Below the pieces are notes generated by a model. The model was not told the DNA's origin and did not search any database. It saw nothing but the letters and a program-made list of their open reading frames with translations. Positions 1 through 13,172 of a stretch of 64,000 bases of DNA are shown here, in pieces. A program made the translations under genes and the position numbers. Source of the DNA: Escherichia coli (GTDB lineage Bacteria > Pseudomonadota > Gammaproteobacteria > Enterobacterales > Enterobacteriaceae). Numbering within the stretch: position 1 is the stretch's first letter; each line of letters starts with the position of its first letter. The stretch is taken from assembly GCF_016026235.1 (NCBI RefSeq), contig NZ_CP065613.1, one strand, 5' to 3'.

Positions 1-176
1 CCATGGGTAAATCATTTTGAACGGCTATGGCAGGCGCTTCATGAAACGATAACGCGCAATCATCAGTGCCGGAGATGTGGCAGTTGCTGAAAAAAGTCCA
101 ACACTTTATGGAAACTGCCAGTCCGTTCCCCGGCGGGAGACATGGTCTGGCAAAAGTGTAGCGGTATTAGGCGCAG

Positions 177-865
177 CTATTTAGCGACATATTCCTTTGT
201 TTTATCGTCAGTTCGTAAACGTCCGATAGCGATGATGTGAAGTGCACTATTTGCAGCACGCTCCCCACCCCGATTAAGTCGGTAACGGTTCATTTTTTTA
301 GAAGATACGGTAACCGAGTTGACACCACACAGCACCGCAAAACCTGATTCTATTCTTAGCCGTTGGGGATTATCTCCGGCAGTGATGAGCAACTGCGAAG
401 CGCTTTCGTATCCAACAGCATTACGTTTAATCAGTTCAGGTGCCAGTTCATCGACAATTGCCGCAATCATGACATCAAGGTCGGCGATTTCATCATGTAA
501 CTCGAAATAGCGTCAGGCAAGTGATTTCAATGCAATGCGATAAACGTTGGTAACATTACGATATTCACTGGCACTAGGCTTCCAGGATCCCGGAGTCCTG
601 ATAAGTTGCATACGTGTCATATTTCTGAGTGGTTCGCGTAATTCATCCGGTGCAGAGATAATATAGGAATGGATAATCTGGAGAGCGACTCTGCAGGCTG
701 ATATTGCGGTTTTGCGGCAAGTTTTTGGCATCCGCTTCTACGCCAAATACCTGAAGTAGGAATGGATGCGTTAGCAGCATACATCCGGATCTGCGCGGGG
801 AATAGCCGGAAACGGCTATCCCTACCACAATAGCTAACTTTGTAATAGTGCCCTTTTAGGCTCAT
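177..865 (-). pseudogene. IS110-family transposase remnant (C-terminal portion only, frameshifted)
   Basis: ORF 177..470 (97 aa) carries the IS110-family C-terminal signature VGYESASQLLITAGDNPQRLRIESGFAVLCGV..SSGK..RYRLNRGGERAANSALH; the upstream frames (513..731, 617..865) are broken, and the N-terminal DEDD domain is missing because the LacI-type gene starts at 862. Confidence 0.45.
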
Positions 866-1893
866 GTACTCTGACGTAATTCTATCTGGTAGTTGAATTG
901 CACGATACGCGACTCTTCTGATTCATCATGATTATTATTCAATAGCCCAATCAGTAACTTACCCGTCTCTATCCCCATTTTTTTGTAGTCAATACGGATG
1001 GATGTCAAGGTTGGGTGTGTTTGATCGCAATTGTCTGAACCATCAAGACAAGCTACAGCGATATTTTCAGGAATTTTTAACAAACGCCGCTGGCACTCAA
1101 ACATGATACCCAGCGCAATCTCTTCGTGGCTGCAAATCACAGCATCCAGCTCTGGTTGTCGCAGTAATATCTCGTTTAATGCGTAACGCCCCAATTGCAG
1201 ACTTGCGGCATCCGGCATGGTGATAACAAGATCAGAGTTCTGGTAATGGCTCAACATTGCTTTATGCCAGCCGTTCAGTTGCTGACGTTGCAGGCGGTTG
1301 TCCATATGCGCACCGATAAATCCGATATTCTTATAACCCTGTTCCAGCAGATGTTCGGTCAGTTTATGTGATGCTTCAAAAAATGCTGTTTCGATGGTAA
1401 TTTGAGCCGGACTGAAAGGGGAACCGACAACGTTAATGGTAGGTATATTTGTTTTCTCGAGTATCTGGTGAGTTTTATCAGCCAACTGAGAACCAAAAAT
1501 AACTAACGCCGCCGGGTTGCCTTGAAGAAGCGTCATCAGAATTTCAGCTTCTTTGAGCTGATTATACTCATGACACCCAAGCAGTAGCTGGAATTCATTT
1601 TTATTAAGCACCTGCTGCAACGACTGCATAAAGCGGGAGCTGGCTTTATCTGTCAGGGAAGGAACCAGTACGGCGACTGTATCACTGTGACCAGATGCAA
1701 GGGCGCCAGCAGTTCTGTTGGGAATATAACCCAACTCTTCTACGGCCTGTTCTATCTTTTCCCTCAGCTTGTCAGATACCTGTTCCGGTGTTCTCAGCGC
1801 ACGGGAAACGGTCATGGTTCCGACACCTGCAAAGTTAGCGACCTCCTGCAGCGTCACCCGTCCGGTACCACGGCGCTTACGTGTTTTTTCCAT
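862..1893 (-). CDS. LacI-family transcriptional regulator (343 aa)
   Basis: N-terminal HTH (RVTLQEVANFAGVGTMTVSRAL) followed by a periplasmic-binding-protein-like sugar-binding fold; ATG at 1891-1893; divergent from the PTS genes. Confidence 0.8.
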   Translation of the reverse strand: MEKTRKRRGTGRVTLQEVANFAGVGTMTVSRALRTPEQVSDKLREKIEQAVEELGYIPNRTAGALASGHSDTVAVLVPSLTDKASSRFMQSLQQVLNKNEFQLLLGCHEYNQLKEAEILMTLLQGNPAALVIFGSQLADKTHQILEKTNIPTINVVGSPFSPAQITIETAFFEASHKLTEHLLEQGYKNIGFIGAHMDNRLQRQQLNGWHKAMLSHYQNSDLVITMPDAASLQLGRYALNEILLRQPELDAVICSHEEIALGIMFECQRRLLKIPENIAVACLDGSDNCDQTHPTLTSIRIDYKKMGIETGKLLIGLLNNNHDESEESRIVQFNYQIELRQST

Positions 1894-2038
1894 TTCGACT
1901 CCATGGATAATTACAACCAGCTGTTTTCATTACTGTTATTTCACCATTACTCTTTCCAGTTTTTGCCCACGGTAGCAAATATCCTGTTGCATTGTATATG
2001 CAGGAACCGAATATAGCCAAAGCATGGCGGCAGAGAAA

Positions 2039-2086
2039 TGATAGCGCTATCACAAAGATTGGTAGCGTTATCAGATAGCGCTATCA
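2039..2086. promoter_or_regulatory. Three LacI-type operator-like palindromes with central CG
   Basis: TGATAGCGCTATCA (2039-2052, perfect 14-bp palindrome), TGGTAGCGTTATCA (2059-2072) and AGATAGCGCTATCA (2073-2086), in the divergent regulator/PTS intergenic region. Confidence 0.5.
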
Positions 2087-2163
2087 AATGCGACAATCAT
2101 CACATTAATTAATGCGTAAAATATCTACTCTCCTGTTAATTATCATCGGGAGTTATCAGTAGC

Positions 2164-2607
2164 ATGTTAAAAAATCTATTAAATACAGAGGTCGTTCAGG
2201 TCGTGGAACAGGCCAAAGACTGGCGGGAAGCCGTGGCGATTTCATGCCGGCCGTTGATTGAAAACGGTTCTATCGAACCGCGTTATGTTGATGCGATCTA
2301 TCGCTCGCACGACACTATCGGTCCGTACTATGTGGTTGGCCCTGGTATTGCGATGCCTCATGCGCGCCCGGAAGAGGGAGCTAACAAGCTGTCATTAGCA
2401 CTGACCCTGATCCCTTCAGGTGTGAATTTTGATGCCGATGAAAACGATCCAGTGAAATTACTGATTGTGCTGGCTGCAACCGACAGTACCAGCCACATTG
2501 AAGCGATTTCTCAACTCGCCAAGTTATTCGATAACGAAAAAGACATACAGGCCATTTTGATGGCCAAAACGACGCAGGACATTTTGTCTGTTATTGCGCG
2601 CTATTAA
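2164..2607 (+). CDS. PTS enzyme IIA component, ascorbate (UlaC/SgcA-like) family
   Basis: 147 aa with PTS_EIIA_2-type motifs (GPYYVVGPGIAMPHARPEEG); GGGAG Shine-Dalgarno upstream of the ATG. Confidence 0.8.
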   Translation: MLKNLLNTEVVQVVEQAKDWREAVAISCRPLIENGSIEPRYVDAIYRSHDTIGPYYVVGPGIAMPHARPEEGANKLSLALTLIPSGVNFDADENDPVKLLIVLAATDSTSHIEAISQLAKLFDNEKDIQAILMAKTTQDILSVIARY

Positions 2608-2622
2608 TCCAGAGGAACATTT

Positions 2623-2910
2623 ATGAAAATTACAGTGGTTTGCGGTAACGGCTTAGGCACCAGCCTGATGATGGAAATGAGCATTAAAAGCATTTTGAAG
2701 GATTTGTCCGTCAGCGCTGATGTTGATCACGTCGACCTGGGCTCCGCGAAAGGGACGCCGAGTGATATCTATGTCGGCACCAAAGACATTGCCGAGCAGT
2801 TAGTCGCGCAGTCTGTCGCAGGCAAAATCGTCGCACTGGAAAATATGATTGATAAGAAAGCCATGAGAGAACGTTTATCCGTGGTATTAAACGAATTAGG
2901 CGCACTGTAA
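2623..2910 (+). CDS. PTS enzyme IIB component (UlaB-like)
   Basis: 95 aa; N-terminal KITVVCGNGLGTS cysteine phosphorylation-site motif typical of small IIB proteins. Confidence 0.8.
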   Translation: MKITVVCGNGLGTSLMMEMSIKSILKDLSVSADVDHVDLGSAKGTPSDIYVGTKDIAEQLVAQSVAGKIVALENMIDKKAMRERLSVVLNELGAL

Positions 2911-2922
2911 GCTGGGGGCGAT

Positions 2923-4179
2923 ATGGATTTCTTTCGTTTTTTGATGAGCGATGTACTTTCCGAACCCGCAGTGCTGGTCGGTTTAATCGCCCTGATTGGC
3001 CTGATTGCACAGAAAAAACCGGTAACCGAATGCATTAAAGGTACCGTCAAGACCATTATGGGGTTTGTGATTTTAGGCGCAGGGGCGGGTTTAGTTGTGT
3101 CGTCACTGGGTGACTTCGCAAACATTTTCCAGCATGCCTTTGGTATTCAGGGTGTAGTGCCGAACAATGAAGCCATTGTTTCCGTAGCGCAGAAAAGCTT
3201 CGGGAAAGAAATGGCGATGATTATGTTCTTTGCGATGGTTATCAACATTATGATTGCCCGTTTCACACCGTGGAAATTTATCTTCCTGACCGGTCATCAC
3301 ACGTTGTTTATGTCGATGATGGTAGCGGTAATTCTGGCAACAGCAGGCATGACCGGCATTACGCTTATAGCCGTTGGCTCTTTGGTTGTTGGCGTGGCAA
3401 TGGTCTTTTTCCCGGCTATTGCGCATCCGTACATGAAGAAAGTGACCGGTTCTGATGACGTTGCCATCGGCCACTTCTCAACATTATCTTATGTATTGGC
3501 CGGTTTCATCGGCAGCAAGTTTGGTAATAAAGAGCACTCGACTGAAGACATGAATGTGCCGAAAAGTCTGCTGTTCTTGCGCGACACGCCGGTTGCTATC
3601 TCTTTTACCATGAGCATAATTTTCCTGGTGACGTGCCTGTTTGCGGGTGCAGATGCGGTGAAAGAGCTTAGCGGTGGTAAAAACTGGTTCATGTTCTCTA
3701 TCATGCAATCCATTACCTTCGCAGCTGGCGTGTACATCATTCTGCAGGGTGTGCGCATGGTGATTGCGGAGATTGTCCCGGCATTCAAAGGTATTTCAGA
3801 CAAGCTGGTTCCGAATGCCAGACCTGCTCTCGATTGCCCGGTCGTCTTCCCTTACGCACCTAACGCTGTACTGGTTGGTTTCCTGAGTAGCTTTGCTGCA
3901 GGTTTAATCGGTATGTTCACGTTGTATCTGCTGAACATGATCGTGATTATTCCTGGTGTGGTGCCGCACTTCTTCGTAGGTGCAGCTGCAGGGGTATTCG
4001 GTAATGCAACGGGTGGACGTCGTGGTGCGATTTTGGGTGCCTTCGCTCAAGGCTTGCTTATTACCTTCCTGCCAGTATTCTTATTGCCGGTGCTGGGTGA
4101 TATTGGTTTTGCTAACACCACCTTCAGTGATGCTGACTTTGGCGCACTGGGTATTTTGTTAGGGATTATCGTTCGCTAA
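2923..4179 (+). CDS. PTS enzyme IIC permease, ascorbate (UlaA/SgaT) family
   Basis: 418 aa polytopic membrane protein with UlaA-like segments (IKGTVKTIMGF, VAEIVPAFKGISDKLVPNA). Confidence 0.85.
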   Translation: MDFFRFLMSDVLSEPAVLVGLIALIGLIAQKKPVTECIKGTVKTIMGFVILGAGAGLVVSSLGDFANIFQHAFGIQGVVPNNEAIVSVAQKSFGKEMAMIMFFAMVINIMIARFTPWKFIFLTGHHTLFMSMMVAVILATAGMTGITLIAVGSLVVGVAMVFFPAIAHPYMKKVTGSDDVAIGHFSTLSYVLAGFIGSKFGNKEHSTEDMNVPKSLLFLRDTPVAISFTMSIIFLVTCLFAGADAVKELSGGKNWFMFSIMQSITFAAGVYIILQGVRMVIAEIVPAFKGISDKLVPNARPALDCPVVFPYAPNAVLVGFLSSFAAGLIGMFTLYLLNMIVIIPGVVPHFFVGAAAGVFGNATGGRRGAILGAFAQGLLITFLPVFLLPVLGDIGFANTTFSDADFGALGILLGIIVR

Positions 4180-4192
4180 TATTTTGATGACA

Positions 4193-4245
4193 TTAATATC
4201 CTCCAGGATTTCAGGAACGTGGAGGATATTAATTCCTCTTATTTT
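4193..4245 (+). terminator. Intrinsic terminator after the PTS operon
   Basis: Perfect 13-bp inverted repeat TTAATATCCTCCA...TGGAGGATATTAA (4193-4232) followed by a T-rich tract. Confidence 0.6.
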
Positions 4246-4418
4246 CTCCATTTTTCTTTCTTCCAGTCAGGACTGCATCCGATTAATCGTAAGGCAGTAT
4301 GACTTTCTGTGAGACAGATGCTGGCCAACGTGGGATATTTAACGCGGGTTAACATCGTTGTCAGAGCCGCATGGGTGAGCTGTTGCTACACCCCGGTATT
4401 TCCACCACGGAGGCCAGC

Positions 4419-5546
4419 ATGAACAACAATAACACATTGTACGTCGGGTTAGATGTTCACAAAGAATCGATTACTGTCGCTTATGCTATCAATTCAGAAC
4501 CTGTTGAACTGATGGGTAAAATTGGCACATCACCTACTGATATTCAGAATCTTTGTAAACGTCTCAGGTCAAAGTCATCGCAGGTCAGTATCGTTTATGA
4601 AGCGGGGCCCTGTGGTTATGGACTTTATCGTCGGCTGGTGAAATCCGGTTTTGACTGCATGGTCTGCGCCCCCTCACTTATCCCGAAAAAACCGGGGGAG
4701 CGGGTTAAAACCGATCGCCGTGATGCCATCAGACTTGTGCGTTCACTGCGTGCAGGAGATCTTTCTGCTGTCTACGTACCCGGCATTGAAGATGAGGCAT
4801 TCCGGGATTTGGCCCGGGCATGGGCATCTGCCCGCGATGATTTACGGCATGCAAGGCAACGTCTGAAATCGTTTCTTCTGGTTCATGGGGTCCATTATGT
4901 CGGGCGAGCAGATTGGGGCCCTGCACACCGACGCTGGCTCAGCAAATACTCATTCGAAAGTCCCTGGCGACAATTAGCTTTTGACGAACACCGTCGTACA
5001 ATAGAAGACCGGCAGGCACAATGTGAACGGCTGGAATCCGCCCTGAAGGAGGCCGTTACCGAATGGAGGCTGTATCCGGTAGTAGAGGCGCTGCAAGCCA
5101 TGCGAGGGATTCAGTTTATTACTGCGGTTGGATTAATTTCTGAACTGGGTGATCTGACCCGTTTTGAACATCCACGACAACTGATGTCATGGTTTGGTAT
5201 CACGCCATCAGAATATTCATCGGGTGGAAGCAGACATCAGGGCAGCATTACCAAAGCCGGAAACAGCTATGCCAGAAAGCTATTGGTCGAGGCAGCGTGG
5301 AGTTACCGTCATCCGGCACGCATCAGTCCGGCAATACAAAAAAGGCAGGAAAATTTACCCCGCCCCGTCATTGACAGAGCATGGGATGCTCAACTCAGGC
5401 TTTGTAAGAGGTATCGAAAACTTCAGGCCAAAGGAAAGAATGTCAATATTACAATTGTTGCTGTTGCACGTGAGCTGGCGGGTTTTATCTGGGATATGGG
5501 CCGAATAGCAATATCTGTCGCACAACAACCACAATGTCACAAATAA
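4419..5546 (+). CDS. IS110-family transposase/recombinase (375 aa from the SD-preceded ATG; the ORF track starts at 4371)
   Basis: N-terminal LYVGLDVHKESI RuvC-like DEDD domain and C-terminal Transposase_20-type region (GITPSEYSSGGSRHQGSITKAGNSYARKLL); GGAGG 7 nt upstream of the ATG at 4419. Confidence 0.8.
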   Translation: MNNNNTLYVGLDVHKESITVAYAINSEPVELMGKIGTSPTDIQNLCKRLRSKSSQVSIVYEAGPCGYGLYRRLVKSGFDCMVCAPSLIPKKPGERVKTDRRDAIRLVRSLRAGDLSAVYVPGIEDEAFRDLARAWASARDDLRHARQRLKSFLLVHGVHYVGRADWGPAHRRWLSKYSFESPWRQLAFDEHRRTIEDRQAQCERLESALKEAVTEWRLYPVVEALQAMRGIQFITAVGLISELGDLTRFEHPRQLMSWFGITPSEYSSGGSRHQGSITKAGNSYARKLLVEAAWSYRHPARISPAIQKRQENLPRPVIDRAWDAQLRLCKRYRKLQAKGKNVNITIVAVARELAGFIWDMGRIAISVAQQPQCHK

Positions 5547-5565
5547 AAAATGAGAATAACCAGTT

Positions 5566-5748
5566 CCCTGAAGGCGACGTAGCCCGGTACAAGAGTAACC
5601 CACGTTAGCGCTTGGCGACGGCGGAACAAAGCTGATTCGCGACGTAAGAAAGTGGCAGGCTCATATGACGGACCTCTGTAATGCGGTATCCAACCCGCGA
5701 ATATCAGCGTGATTCACCGTCGGATTTACTGCTACGTCGCCCTCAGGG
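5566..5748 (+). other. Long-range inverted repeat enclosing 147 bp downstream of the IS110-family recombinase (candidate structured RNA)
   Basis: CCCTGAAGGCGACGTAGC (5566-5583) is complementary at 17 of 18 positions to GCTACGTCGCCCTCAGGG (5731-5748). Confidence 0.4.
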
Positions 5749-6134
5749 AATTAAACCTAAAAAGAAAATCGTCAAAATTAGAGATTCCGGTTTGACACGG
5801 AAAGTCATATCAGCGCTGACGGGTGACCCTAAGCCCTGATAATCATAGCTTAAGGTGAGGATTTATGAGGGATTAATTAGGAAAAGTAATAATTAATTTG
5901 TTGTCAGTCGGCGATGTTTGTTAGGCCAATATTTCAAAAATAATCCAGCTTGTCGTCAATAATTGCGATAAAGAGATAAATTAAAGTTAAATAATTAAAT
6001 CATTAAAAAATTACGCCATTAAAATGCGAGGCGTCTTCCGGATTAGAATCGATAAAACAGAATGGGTTAAAGAGAGCGATATAATAGCGGCGGGTGCTTG
6101 AGGCTGTCTGTCTCAGGCATTAGCTGAACGGCAG

Positions 6135-6195
6135 ATAGAGAAAAGCCCCGAGTGATATTTTACCATCAACCCGAGGCCCCCTATATGCTGAACAC
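6135..6195 (-). ncRNA. sokC: sokC antisense RNA of the hokC/mokC locus (position inferred)
   Basis: In hok/sok loci the Sok RNA is antisense to the mok start region; TTGACC (reverse complement of 6223-6228) is a candidate -35. Coordinates are approximate. Confidence 0.3.
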
Positions 6196-6394
6196 ATGTA
6201 GAGTGCCTCTTACTGACCGTAAGGTCAAGGAGAAGAGAGCAATGAAGCAGCATAAGGCGATGATTGTCGCCCTGATCGTCATCTGTATCACCGCCGTAGT
6301 GGCGGCGCTGGTAACGAGAAAAGACCTCTGTGAGGTTCACATCCGAACTGGCCAGACGGAGGTTGCTGTTTTCACGGCTTACGAATCCGAGTAA
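6185..6394 (+). CDS. mokC: MokC, overlapping regulatory reading frame of hokC
   Basis: 69-codon frame MLNTCRVPLTDRKVKEKRA... that contains hokC in the same frame. Confidence 0.65.
   Translation: MLNTCRVPLTDRKVKEKRAMKQHKAMIVALIVICITAVVAALVTRKDLCEVHIRTGQTEVAVFTAYESE
6242..6394 (+). CDS. hokC: HokC (Gef) small membrane toxin
   Basis: 50 aa MKQHKAMIVALIVICITAVVAALVTRKDLCEVHIRTGQTEVAVFTAYESE, matching the Hok family. Confidence 0.85.
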   Translation: MKQHKAMIVALIVICITAVVAALVTRKDLCEVHIRTGQTEVAVFTAYESE

Positions 6395-6417
6395 GAGCAA
6401 CGGCGGGGAGTGATCCC

Positions 6418-7711
6418 CTGAGGGATCCCCAGAAAATTTAGTAAACCATTATCATATTGGTATACCGTTGCTGTAGAACTTTCAGCCCTGCGTCAAGTGA
6501 CAGTGTGTTTAGTATGAGTGGAGAATGTCGAATCACATTCTCCGCCAGTTTTAATAACGAGATGACTCGCCTGTGCTTCACTGTATTTGCCTGATATTTA
6601 TGATGTATCCCTTTGTTTTCCAGGCTGAAACCGCTTAACCACATAATGATACTGGCTAATGTTGCGATCAGACTCAATACCGTGACCCGCCCGGATGAAT
6701 GACTGGCACCAAACCGTAGTCCAAATCCCCAGCGAGGATTTTTTTCATCCCTGAAATTTTGCTCAATTTGCATTCTACGGCTGTATAATTTCATTACCTG
6801 TTTTGGCGAGAACTCAGTACTGTTTGTGAAAATAAACCATGGTGATTTCCCGGCAGTACGAGCTTTAGCCGTCACCGATGGTCTGGTTGCTCTTTCCTTC
6901 GAGCGTTTAAATCTACGACCTTTAGGCTTACTTTTATAAAGATAAAAATGCCCTTCATGTTGTGCATTTTTATCTCGACCCAGCAGGCCTTCACCTAAAT
7001 AAATTGCTGTCGTTGATGCTTTTGTGCCTGAGTCCGACACCTTTTCCCAGCCATTACCAACATTGTAATAATGATTGCCCAGTACCCGGCAAATATAGGT
7101 CCAGCCACGGGAGCGGAGCTGTTGGAACCATCGCCCCTGAAAACCGGCATCTGTAATAACAATGACATCAGTCCCGGGGGAAAAGCACTCAGCAAGCGAT
7201 TCCAGAAAACGCTCATGTACATCTGCATTCGCTGTCTGTGATGATGGAACGACACAACTCATCAACGGTAAAGAACGCCCGTCACATGCCAGGCTTGCCC
7301 GCAAAAGCTGAAAACGAGAGGCATGATAAGCACTCCAGTCAATGAGTATCACAACACGAGACATTCCCCGCGTAATCTTTTGGGTAATTCGCTGAAAAAT
7401 GGTGGAAACCTCATTTTGCAAATGTCGATTCCCCAACAGTCGATCCACCCGCTTTATTTTGTTTTTAACTGATGCCGTACCGGTTAAATGACGCCCGATA
7501 CTGGTAAGTGTGAGGGAAGCGCCATTTATTACAGCATTAGTTGCGTCAATCAGTGATTTTTGACGGTAAAGATGCAAAGGGGCCAGTATATTGTTAAGGA
7601 AATTTTGGCATAATGAACGTGCAGGCATAGTGGTGATCTCCTTGAAATTGTTAGCACAATCAATTAGATCACATCTCACTATGCCTGTCTTGTTTTCTGG
7701 GGATTCCTCAG
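6418..7711 (-). mobile_element. IS10-like (IS4-family) insertion sequence, intact copy, about 1.29 kb
   Basis: Terminal inverted repeats CTGAGGGATCCCCAGAAAA (left) and CTGAGGAATCCCCAGAAAA (right, reverse complement), resembling IS10 ends; flanked by direct repeat GAGTGATCC(C) at 6408-6417 and 7712-7721. Confidence 0.8.
6438..7628 (-). CDS. IS4-family (IS10-group) transposase, 396 aa
   Basis: Shares IS10 transposase motifs (KIKRVDRLLGNRHL, DWSA, DAGF, YSRRMQIEQNFRDEK, QANTVKHRRV); true start is MPARSL at 7628, the ORF-track start at 7727 lies outside the element. Confidence 0.85.
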   Translation of the reverse strand: MPARSLCQNFLNNILAPLHLYRQKSLIDATNAVINGASLTLTSIGRHLTGTASVKNKIKRVDRLLGNRHLQNEVSTIFQRITQKITRGMSRVVILIDWSAYHASRFQLLRASLACDGRSLPLMSCVVPSSQTANADVHERFLESLAECFSPGTDVIVITDAGFQGRWFQQLRSRGWTYICRVLGNHYYNVGNGWEKVSDSGTKASTTAIYLGEGLLGRDKNAQHEGHFYLYKSKPKGRRFKRSKERATRPSVTAKARTAGKSPWFIFTNSTEFSPKQVMKLYSRRMQIEQNFRDEKNPRWGFGLRFGASHSSGRVTVLSLIATLASIIMWLSGFSLENKGIHHKYQANTVKHRRVISLLKLAENVIRHSPLILNTLSLDAGLKVLQQRYTNMIMVY

Positions 7712-7760
7712 GAGTGATCCCCGCCACTTTACAGGTGCTCGCATATCTTCAACGCACCCT

Positions 7761-7794
7761 ATTTTTACCCAGGCCTGCCCACGGGCAGGCTTTT
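7761..7794. terminator. Bidirectional hairpin terminator between dnaJ and the hokC side
   Basis: GCCTGCCCacgGGCAGGC hairpin with TTTT on the plus strand and an A/T run on the minus strand. Confidence 0.4.
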
Positions 7795-7801
7795 GGGGAG
7801 G

Positions 7802-8932
7802 TTAGCGGGTCAGGTCGTCAAAAAACTTCTTCACACCATCAAAGAAGCTCTTTGAGCGCGGGCTGTTGTGCTCGCCGGTTGGGCCACCGAAGCTTTCTTG
7901 CAGCTCTTGCAGCAGCTGTTTCTGCTTCTCGTTCAGGCCTACCGGTGTTTCGACGACAACGCGGCACAGCAAATCACCCTGTGCGCCACCGCGGACAGAC
8001 TTGACGCCTTTACCGCGCATACGGAATAGCTTACCGGTCTGGGTTTCGCCAGGCACTTTCAGTTTGACGCGACCATCAAGGGTCGGTACTTCGATTTCGC
8101 CACCCAGCGCCGCCATAGCGAAGTTGATCGGGACTTCGCAATACAGGTTGTTGCCTTCACGCTCGAAAATCGGGTGCTGTTTAACCTGAACCTGAACGTA
8201 CAGATCGCCTGCCGGTGCGCCATGCTCGCCCGCTTCACCTTCGCCCGCAAGACGGATGCGGTCTCCAGTGTCCACCCCTGCCGGGATTTTAACGGACAGC
8301 GTTTTGCTGCGCTCAACACGACCATGACCATGACATTTGTTGCACGGATCTTTGATCAGCGTACCGCGGCCCTGACAGTGTGGACAGGTCTGCTGCACGG
8401 CAAAGAAACCCTGGCGCATCTGCACCTGACCAGAACCATGACAGGTCGGACAGGTCTGCGGCTGTGTACCTGGTTTTGCACCGCTACCGTGGCAAACGTC
8501 ACACTCTTCCAGAGTCGGAATGCGGATCTCTTTGGTCACGCCACGTACAGCTTCTTCGAGGGTGAGCTCCATGTTATAGCGTAAATCAGCACCGCGCGCC
8601 GCACGTTGACGACCACGTCCGCCGCCAAAAATATCGCCGAAAACGTCACCAAAAATATCGCTGAAGTCTGCGCCGCCGCCAAAACCGCCGCCGCCCATGC
8701 CACCTTGCTCAAACGCAGCATGACCATACTGATCGTATGCCGCACGTTTTTGCGAGTCGGTCAGAACTTCATAAGCTTCCTTGATCTCTTTAAATTTCGC
8801 CTCGGCCTCTTTGTCACCCTGGTTACGGTCTGGGTGGTATTTCATGGCCAGGCGTTTGTAGGCCTTTTTGATTTCACGCTCTTCCGCTGTTTTGGAAACG
8901 CCTAAAATCTCGTAATAATCTTGCTTAGCCAT
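7802..8932 (-). CDS. dnaJ: Chaperone DnaJ (Hsp40)
   Basis: [13 protein letters not shown]-domain, Gly/Phe-rich region and CxxCxGxG zinc-finger repeats; 376 aa. Confidence 0.95.
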
Positions 8933-11743: not shown

Positions 11744-12457
11744 ATGAATGTTAATTACCTGAATGATTCAGATCTGGATTTTCTCCAGCATTGTAGTGAG
11801 GAACAGTTAGCAAATTTCGCCCAGCTGCTCACCCATAATGAAAAAGGCAAAACTAGCCTCTCCAGCGTACTGATGCGCAACGAACTGTTTAAATCGATGG
11901 AAGGACATCCCGAGCAACATCGCCGCAACTGGCAGCTGATTGCTGGAGAATTACAGCATTTTGGTGGCGATAGTATCGCCAACAAACTGCGCGGACACGG
12001 TAAATTGTATCGGGCCATTTTGCTCGATGTTTCAAAACGATTGAAGCTGAAAGCCGACAAAGAGATGTCTACGTTTGAAATTGAGCAACAGTTACTGGAA
12101 CAATTTCTGCGTAATACCTGGAAGAAAATGGACGAGGAACATAAGCAGGAGTTTCTGCACGCGGTCGATGCCAGGGTGAATGAGCTGGAAGAGCTGCTGC
12201 CGCTGCTGATGAAAGACAAATTATTGGCAAAAGGCGTGTCGCATTTGCTTTCCAGCCAATTGACCCGCATTTTACGCACCCACGCAGCAATGAGCGTGCT
12301 TGGGCATGGTTTGCTGCGCGGCGCGGGTCTGGGAGGCCCTGTGGGCGCAGCATTAAATGGGGTTAAAGCGGTCAGCGGCAGCGCCTATCGCGTGACGATT
12401 CCAGCCGTACTGCAAATCGCCTGCCTGCGCCGGATGGTTAGCGCCACTCAGGTCTGA
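11744..12457 (+). CDS. yaaW: Uncharacterized protein YaaW
   Basis: 237 aa, K-12 synteny. Confidence 0.9.
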   Translation: MNVNYLNDSDLDFLQHCSEEQLANFAQLLTHNEKGKTSLSSVLMRNELFKSMEGHPEQHRRNWQLIAGELQHFGGDSIANKLRGHGKLYRAILLDVSKRLKLKADKEMSTFEIEQQLLEQFLRNTWKKMDEEHKQEFLHAVDARVNELEELLPLLMKDKLLAKGVSHLLSSQLTRILRTHAAMSVLGHGLLRGAGLGGPVGAALNGVKAVSGSAYRVTIPAVLQIACLRRMVSATQV

Positions 12458-12605
12458 TACCGGAAACCGGGGAAAATTTTCATTTTCCCCTCAAAAGATC
12501 GTAGACACTGCCCCACTGGCTGATTATTATGCCGCGCCCTGAAAACACTACAGTTATTCAGGGAAATTATTTCACCATTCATTCGATGATGATTTTTGAG
12601 GAATT

Positions 12606-13172
12606 ATGGGCAACACTAAGTTGGCTAATCCGGCACCGCTGGGCCTGATGGGCTTCGGCATGACCACCATTCTGCTTAACCTGCACAACGTGGGTTATTT
12701 CGCTCTGGACGGTATTATTCTTGCCATGGGCATTTTCTACGGCGGCATCGCGCAAATTTTTGCCGGTCTGCTGGAGTACAAAAAAGGCAACACTTTCGGT
12801 TTAACCGCATTCACCTCTTACGGTTCTTTCTGGCTGACGCTGGTTGCGATTCTGCTGATGCCGAAACTGGGTCTGACCGATGCGCCAAATGCACAGTTCC
12901 TTGGTGTCTACCTGGGTCTGTGGGGCGTATTTACGCTGTTTATGTTCTTCGGCACTCTGAAAGGCGCACGCGTCCTGCAATTCGTTTTCTTTAGCCTGAC
13001 CGTGCTGTTTGCCCTGCTGGCGATCGGTAACATTGCCGGTAATGCCGCGATCATCCACTTTGCCGGCTGGATTGGTCTGATCTGCGGTGCCAGCGCAATC
13101 TATCTGGCGATGGGTGAAGTGCTGAACGAGCAGTTTGGTCGCACCGTTCTGCCGATTGGTGAATCCCACTAA
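12606..13172 (+). CDS. satP: Succinate-acetate/proton symporter SatP (YaaH)
   Basis: 188 aa GPR1/FUN34/YaaH-family membrane protein. Confidence 0.9.
   Translation: MGNTKLANPAPLGLMGFGMTTILLNLHNVGYFALDGIILAMGIFYGGIAQIFAGLLEYKKGNTFGLTAFTSYGSFWLTLVAILLMPKLGLTDAPNAQFLGVYLGLWGVFTLFMFFGTLKGARVLQFVFFSLTVLFALLAIGNIAGNAAIIHFAGWIGLICGASAIYLAMGEVLNEQFGRTVLPIGESH

Follow-up and report, generated by a model that had tools for sequence, protein, structure and literature searches.

The first kilobase of a 64,000-nucleotide stretch of Escherichia coli DNA (contig NZ_CP065613.1 of assembly GCF_016026235.1; the whole stretch is the window in what follows) carries, downstream of a LacI-type regulator gene, the remains of a transposase gene of the IS110 family of insertion sequences (IS). 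Window positions 184-735 are, with high probability, an inert fossil of an ISEc21-type element of this family that has been cut down by other mobile elements. The fossil is placed between the decayed right-hand end of an IS630-type element and the probable tail of a group II intron; beyond the latter are the LacI gene and three genes for an ascorbate-type phosphotransferase system (PTS), followed by an intact IS110-family element, ISSso6 (Table 1). The setting of the fragment is ordinary mobile-element debris inside an E. coli genomic island.

Table 1. Features at the left end of the window, with their coordinates, strand and the evidence or remarks attached to each (ORF, open reading frame)
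Feature	Window coordinates	Strand	Evidence or remarks
ISEc33-like IS630-family element, degenerate right-hand end	1..183	+	terminus ~183; pseudogene extends beyond the left edge of the window
ISEc21-cluster (IS110-type) transposase gene, internal 552-bp fragment	184..735	-	tblastn, ungapped nucleotide identity, PF02371, RefSeq pseudogene
Residual 97-codon ORF	177..470	-	starts at an internal Met (ATG), ends in a TAG created at the IS630 junction
In-frame nonsense TGA	513..515	-	CGA (Arg206) at the same position in the intact copies L002, L006 and L007
Probable group II intron, degenerate 3'-terminal relic	733..831	+	final ~40 nt of the ORF for the intron-encoded protein, then domains V and VI
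Spacer between the 3' end of the intron relic and the LacI stop codon	832..861		30 bp; Buttiauxella cassette homology starts at ~850
LacI-family regulator	862..1893	-	Pfam LacI and Peripla_BP_3; 90% protein identity to Buttiauxella orthologues
PTS IIA, ascorbate type	2164-2607	+	
PTS IIB, ascorbate type	2623-2910	+	
PTS IIC, ascorbate type	2923-4179	+	
ISSso6, intact IS110-family element, IS1111 type	~4289-5816 (ends +/- ~5 bp)	+	transposase ORF 4419-5546

Regarding the identity of the fragment, a tblastn search of the 358-aa ISEc21 transposase (L002) against window 1-1200 returned one alignment, window 734..180, in a single frame; it covered residues 133-317 with 164/185 identities (89%), 0 gaps and one stop, and an E-value of 1e-115. 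The nucleotide search gave 89.1% identity to ISEc21 (L002) in a single ungapped block over window 184-726/735, and the elements found at 89% identity carry the annotation "IS110-like element ISEc21 family"; a sister variant present on E. coli IncF plasmids (L006 and L007) is 92.2% identical to the fragment at the nucleotide level, again ungapped, and the ungapped DNA alignments to intact copies span 543-552 bp. At 89-92% nucleotide identity, the fragment is a diverged relative and not ISEc21 itself. The residual ORF matched Transposase_20 (PF02371), the C-terminal domain that it shares with ISEc21, with an E-value of 3.6e-7 and 30.9 bits (cutoff 21.3) over profile positions 10-86 of 87; the NCBIfam IS110 profile (NF033542) was matched with an E-value of 1.5e-9 and 37.5 bits, below the whole-protein cutoff of 140, and the match was limited to profile positions 193-301 of 343. 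The initial annotation of this DNA, made from the sequence alone, had recognized an IS110-family fragment in this ORF, and that assignment stands. RefSeq also has a pseudogene on the same DNA in strain SE15 (window 180-734, minus strand), described as "transposase; internal stop; missing N- and C-terminus", and annotates an IS630-family pseudogene to its left and the LacI-family regulator and PTS IIA, IIB and IIC to its right; a PDB sequence search with the ISEc21 transposase found no sequence-level match to solved structures.

As for the extent of the fragment, the initial annotation had taken the ORF as the C-terminal 97 codons of a transposase, preceded by broken frames up to position 865, and the alignments correct it on each point. 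Codons 133-317 of 358 are retained; because intact proteins run 41 residues further and homology stops at window 184, the fragment is not the C-terminus of the gene, and the TAG at 177-179 belongs to junction or flanking DNA and is not the native transposase stop. No frameshift was seen in the tblastn search over 1-1200 or in the ungapped DNA alignments: ORFs 177..470 and 513..731 share one frame and are split by a single TGA, and since the tblastn alignment is gapless with a single stop, they are one frame with a nonsense mutation and not frameshifted pieces. IS110 homology ends at 735, not at 865. Both homology boundaries fall inside the transposase coding sequence, and the surviving piece corresponds to about bp 670-1220 of a ~1.37 kb element, an internal third, as estimated from annotated flanks.

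The requirements for movement are known for ISEc21. DEDD transposases of the IS110 family find their target by means of a seekRNA (bridge RNA), and ISEc21 movement requires the DEDD domain, the C-terminal finger with its SG motif, the guide RNA, and both ends in the correct target context; the ISEc21 guide RNA is encoded at element bp 8-179, in the upstream non-coding region, and is essential (PMC11187229). In the fragment, codons 1-132 are missing: the N-terminal DEDD (RuvC-like) domain PF01548, present in intact proteins, gave no match, and no N-terminal homology was detected anywhere in window 1-1200. The upstream guide-RNA region was not found either, as homology to intact copies stops at 735, inside the gene, and the Rfam scans returned no guide-RNA family. 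Both IS ends are gone, and so is the usual target of ISEc21, an IS3-family site, no flanking IS3-family target being left at the fragment; furthermore, the finger motif SSGK is changed to SSKK at 294-305, that is, SG to SK. Because the DEDD domain, the guide-RNA region, both ends and the last 41 codons are absent, with the TGA and the change in the SG motif besides, the fragment is inert, unable to move or to be mobilised in trans. The substitution pattern agrees with long inactivity: intact copies differ from one another with a ratio of replacement to silent substitution rates (dN/dS) of 0.05-0.07, and from the fragment with one of 0.17-0.36, and a three-taxon split puts ~20 replacement and ~13 silent changes on the branch of the fragment itself (omega ~0.5).

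The origin of the fragment was addressed with its 96-aa C-terminal piece, used in tblastn against 72,556 plasmids. The nearest relatives are enterobacterial, with 85-92% amino acid identity in Klebsiella, Escherichia, Salmonella, Enterobacter and Citrobacter, followed by 61-72% in Paraburkholderia and Phaeobacter, and by 42-50% in Streptomyces, Rhodococcus and Arthrobacter. A motif of the fragment had been called Actinobacteria-like at first; a distant resemblance of this kind does exist, but the enterobacterial relatives are far closer, and an actinobacterial proximate source is ruled out by them.

On its left side, the fragment meets a stretch (window 1..183) that RefSeq describes as an IS630-family pseudogene, frameshifted and with an internal stop. 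This stretch is ~83% identical to ISEc33 copies through the last base before the IS110 fragment, and the alignment of intact ISEc33 stops at window 183/184, precisely where ISEc33 meets its own flank. On these alignments, the IS110 fragment stops precisely where an IS630-type element, itself decayed, has its terminus.

On the right side, no homology to ISEc21-type elements extends past 735. In 736-865, tblastn searches with the transposases of ISEc21, ISSso6 and ISEc45 gave only chance matches and no N-terminal transposase homology, and ORFs 617-865 and 643-828 had no Pfam or NCBIfam match. The Salmonella diarizonae plasmid CP053333.1 (L040) carries a group II intron whose 3' end resembles window 733-830, with 85.9% identity over 98 nt (E = 8e-22). 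This intron has a 526-aa reverse-transcriptase ORF and matches the Rfam family group-II-D1D4-6 at 164 bits; in that plasmid, the part homologous to the window scores 38.2 bits (E = 2.7e-5) for Intron_gpII (RF00029, domains V-VI), whose gathering score is 40. A second intron (L041) matches group-II-D1D4-6 at 186.6 bits, and the same ~99 nt have matches at the 3' ends of ltrA introns annotated in E. coli, including the hlyE-umuD intron in NZ_CP020048.1. A four-way alignment of intron tails places their shared 3' boundary at window ~831. In the window, the 5' strand of domain V has changed from GAGCC to GA-AU, and the AGC triad is destroyed. Positions 733/736-831 are thus best described as a probable group II intron relic, a membership that rests on nucleotide homology to two introns equipped with group-II-D1D4-6 and a reverse-transcriptase gene. 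Compared with these introns (CP053333.1 and the ltrA intron of NZ_CP020048.1), the relic has the last ~98 nt in common, namely the end of the reverse-transcriptase ORF and then domains V-VI; it differs in being a tail only, with no D1-D4, no reverse-transcriptase gene and a mutated domain V. Bases 733-735 (CGC) are common to the IS110 fragment and the intron sequence, a 3-nt microhomology of the kind left behind by illegitimate recombination. With an IS630-type end to the left and an intron tail to the right, the initial view of the fragment as an older remnant, truncated by mobile-element events, is upheld.

The distribution of this right-hand stretch was followed in complete genomes, where the searches covered 5,426 E. 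coli assemblies. Positions 736-861 are single-copy, and at least 80% of the stretch occurs in 937 genomes (1,039 with any match); it bears no annotation in RefSeq, and is absent from the orthologous cassettes of other genera, where homology ends at 850-862. An unannotated orphan tail, 78% identical to window 736-823, occurs at L038 3001-3088 in E. coli EC2 and in ~74 other genomes, within an unrelated island and beside large hypothetical genes; it was considered as the end of a novel element, and the four-way alignment showed it to be a second group II intron tail. In the Rfam scan of window 1-8000, the sok RNA was the sole family found. When positions 600-900 were scanned at E <= 10, a Moco riboswitch was proposed at 728-837 with 20.5 bits, against a gathering score of 36; this match is due to chance and is driven by the hairpin of domain VI.

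Regarding the cassette, the LacI gene and the IIA, IIB and IIC genes occur together as a conserved four-gene unit in Buttiauxella, in Yersinia, where the unit is widespread, and in Dryocola, Brenneria and others. A scan with the LacI protein, with one genome per species, yielded 29 loci, in Buttiauxella (87-90% protein identity), Yersinia (70-83%), Dryocola, Enterobacter, Klebsiella, Citrobacter, Brenneria, Edaphovirga and Moellerella; nucleotide homology covers window ~850-4186, from the LacI stop to the IIC stop, and reaches 87.7% in Buttiauxella sp. B2. The cassette is a horizontally acquired unit. None of the 29 orthologous loci outside E. coli has IS110-type sequence; the remains of mobile elements are a feature of the island in E. 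coli, not of the cassette. The right flank of the cassette was retrieved for four other E. coli loci (L001, at 12426-12680, L003, L005 and L008), and each has an IS66-family TnpA-like ORF of 63 or 84 aa there; therefore, the cassette was flanked by IS sequences on both sides before ISSso6 arrived. In the homologous block at 850-4186, only a regulator and a transporter are encoded, and catabolic enzymes are not. An intact ORF of 418 codons encodes PTS IIC in the window; in FDAARGOS_943 (L008 5366-6621), otherwise near-identical, the annotation gives this gene a frameshift.

ISSso6, at the other end of the cassette, is the element that matching genomes annotate as "IS110-like element ISSso6 family". 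Its transposase ORF contains the Pfam domains DEDD_Tnp_IS110 and Transposase_20, and reaches 273.9 bits with the NCBIfam IS110 profile, so that NF033542 and PF02371 match both ISSso6 and the fragment. Elements of the IS1111 type are defined by subterminal inverted repeats and by a long non-coding region that follows the transposase gene (PMC11187229). In ISSso6, subterminal inverted repeats of 14 nt (93% complementary) lie at 4298-4311 and 5796-5809, and there are 270 bp of non-coding sequence downstream of the transposase ORF versus 130 bp upstream; by these features, it would be an IS1111-type element, and it contrasts with ISEc21, where the long non-coding region is upstream. The downstream region, 5547-5816, is the expected location of the IS1111-type seekRNA or bridge RNA. 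A 20-nt long-range inverted repeat, 95% complementary, occurs in this region (arms at 5564-5583 and 5731-5750). The fragment and the ISSso6 transposase are 26% identical over 96 aa (E = 0.029), in agreement with the initial proposal that they are of different lineages. Unlike the fragment, ISSso6 is intact, newly placed and multi-copy, with 37 matches in FDAARGOS_943, the closest genome.

The cassette and the DNA beyond ISSso6 were not neighbours originally. Collinearity with the five fetched cassette-bearing genomes ends at 4293, ISSso6 being absent there in all five, and the junction between cassette and ISSso6 (4293/4294) is spanned by none of the matches listed among the complete E. coli genomes, the best of which start at the IS. 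To the right of ISSso6 come sok/mokC and ISEc60, and then the core region dnaK ... thrA ... creD; this DNA is 100% identical to a region of FDAARGOS_943 that lies ~127 kb from the cassette, and the cassette is normally located in an island near ilvN. Because collinearity ends at 4293, the junction is unmatched, and the right-hand DNA is a distant core region, the juxtaposition is a late, lineage-specific rearrangement; its geometry would fit an inversion between two inverted ISSso6 copies. As for the rest of this side of the window, a hok/sok-type toxin-antitoxin locus occupies 6092-6400 (Rfam sok at 6092-6244, 119.5 bits; mokC in matching genomes), and is directly followed by the IS4-like ISEc60 at 6438-7727, on the minus strand. 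Further on, at 39001-64000, the core genes deoA/deoB, prfC, opgB and yjjI are interrupted relative to other genomes, in five aligned pieces, and the same part contains at least one repeat, presumably a common IS, that has ~15,000 occurrences on E. coli plasmids.

The comparison of E. coli loci separates the two edges of the fragment. Window bases 1-4,293 are 100% identical to many E. coli chromosomes, for example those of SE15, NCTC86 and FDAARGOS_943; at least 80% of 177-865 is held by 408 genomes, and the full arrangement of 1-1000 by 323. The 735/736 junction is identical in all five fetched E. coli cassette loci, and the left edge varies: it is at 184 in the window, SE15 and FDAARGOS_943, where it abuts the IS630-type end; at 209 in strain 500010 (L003), where it abuts a transposase-domain remnant and ISEc45; at 410 in UPEC-245U (L004), where it abuts a group II intron; at 638 in strain 315; and at 660 in SCU-111 (L005), where it abuts other DNA. 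The intron of UPEC-245U (L004 2671-4003) differs from that of the right-hand relic, has reverse transcriptase and maturase ORFs, and ends exactly at edge 410; therefore, introns have met the IS110 remnant at least twice, in the same orientation. Across lineages, at least five mobile elements are met at the stretch downstream of LacI, namely an ISEc21-type IS, two kinds of group II intron, an IS630-type IS and ISEc45. The simplest reading is that the 735/736 fusion arose a single time, in an ancestor, and that lineages then lost sequence from the opposite side independently of each other. It is very improbable that the stretch downstream of LacI is a preferred landing or deletion site for retro-elements and guide-RNA-directed IS, or that ORF 177-470 is expressed and interferes with ISEc21-type complexes.

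Several observations weigh against the reading of window 184-735 as an inert fossil trimmed by an IS630-type element and an intron. The coordinates used for the ends of ISEc21-type elements derive from annotated flanks and not from ISfinder. IS630 elements insert at TA, and the corresponding site in intact ISEc21-type copies is TG, so that at the left junction an insertion and an adjacent deletion cannot be distinguished; this junction may be an IS-adjacent deletion rather than a simple insertion. At the right junction, RF00029 was not matched in window 600-900 even at E <= 10. The 97-codon ORF is uninterrupted and 100% conserved across several hundred genomes, which may be read as constraint. 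The last point is a weak sign of constraint, because the carriers are near-identical over the whole kilobase and the ORF is deleted in other lineages. If it were followed nonetheless, ORF 177..470, which contains Transposase_20 only, would be a retained and expressed truncated protein, for instance a dominant-negative inhibitor of ISEc21-type transposase/guide-RNA complexes, and its ATG start, together with its identical form in more than 300 genomes, would suit such a role. The rest of the evidence makes this scarcely plausible: the promoter/terminator scan of window 1-2200 found no more sites than in shuffled sequence and no promoter-like site toward the residual ORF, the stop codon arose from the IS630 junction, the fragment shows an excess of replacement changes as well as a mutated SG motif, RefSeq treats the gene as a pseudogene, and the cassette persists in lineages whose left edge, at 410, 638 or 660, leaves little or nothing of the ORF. 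A different proposal is that 736-861 is the native 3' flank of the cassette, such as a LacI terminator, and not the relic of a mobile element. The LacI strand does have a 10-bp hairpin, 42 nt beyond the LacI stop, and the stretch is always linked to the cassette in E. coli, where it has a single copy; however, cassette homology in the other genera ends at 850-862, the scan gave no terminator-like site, folding of 736-865 is unremarkable and not significantly better than that of shuffled sequences (z -1.9), and on the opposite strand the stretch has a base-by-base alignment with intron domains V-VI, in which the hairpin is domain VI. A native flank is accordingly an extremely unlikely origin for 736-861.

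The remaining alternative concerns the cassette as a whole, and follows the initial annotation: two IS110-family elements would bracket the PTS cassette in a meaningful way, as for arrival in the form of a transposon-like unit, the left copy being frameshifted and nearly full-length up to LacI. IS110-family sequence does occur on both sides of the cassette in the window, and the cassette is both horizontally acquired and set amid IS remnants; this part of the initial view is retained, but the IS110 bracketing is uninformative on how the cassette arrived. The elements are of different type, with the low identity reported above and with subterminal repeats and a downstream non-coding region in ISSso6 only, and the IS110 and IS1111 types each need their own guide RNA and their own ends (PMC11187229); the fragment has neither ends nor guide RNA, and the left copy is not frameshifted and gives way to the intron tail at 736-831, its homology stopping at 735. 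In a composite transposon, two copies of the same IS, or co-operating ones, would flank the cargo, and the whole unit would recur elsewhere; here the flanking elements differ in type, the right-hand one is missing from the five fetched carriers, and the 29 loci from other species have no IS110 sequence. The comparison with orthologous loci thus indicates that the bracketing is not ancestral, and a transposon-like unit is most unlikely. Because the ISSso6 junction is not in any listed complete genome and marks a rearrangement, with DNA of a distant core region beyond it, the IS110-type bracketing is coincidental, a recent accident.

With window 184-735 taken as an ISEc21-type fossil, the following history may be proposed for the locus. 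A deletion or illegitimate recombination across CGC would have fused transposase codon 133 to a group II intron tail of ~98 nt, the parent intron having its end 30 bp beyond the 3' end of the LacI gene in the horizontally acquired LacI-PTS cassette. We infer that this 735/736 fusion probably took place once and early in the history of the island, because the same junction is found in every cassette-bearing E. coli locus examined. Later, different mobile elements would have eroded the fragment from its left side, independently in each lineage, and ISSso6 would have arrived recently in the lineage of the window, becoming the breakpoint of a rearrangement beside the cassette.

In conclusion, the fragment as a transposase pseudogene is already known from RefSeq, where the same sequence, with 100% identity, is annotated as ECSF_RS25420 in SE15 and as "IS110 family transposase" elsewhere. 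These annotations omit the relationship to ISEc21, the IS630 terminus at the junction, and the intron relic; the additions made here are the assignment to the ISEc21 cluster, the precise positions of the junctions, and a group II intron tail of ~100 bp that had gone without annotation. Their significance is small, a tidier annotation of one E. coli island with no bearing on an open question. However, it should be noted that the variable left edges (184, 209, 410, 638 and 660), set against a fixed right junction, could serve as phylogenetic markers for the island, and that the locus is a textbook case of mobile elements piling onto and eroding each other.

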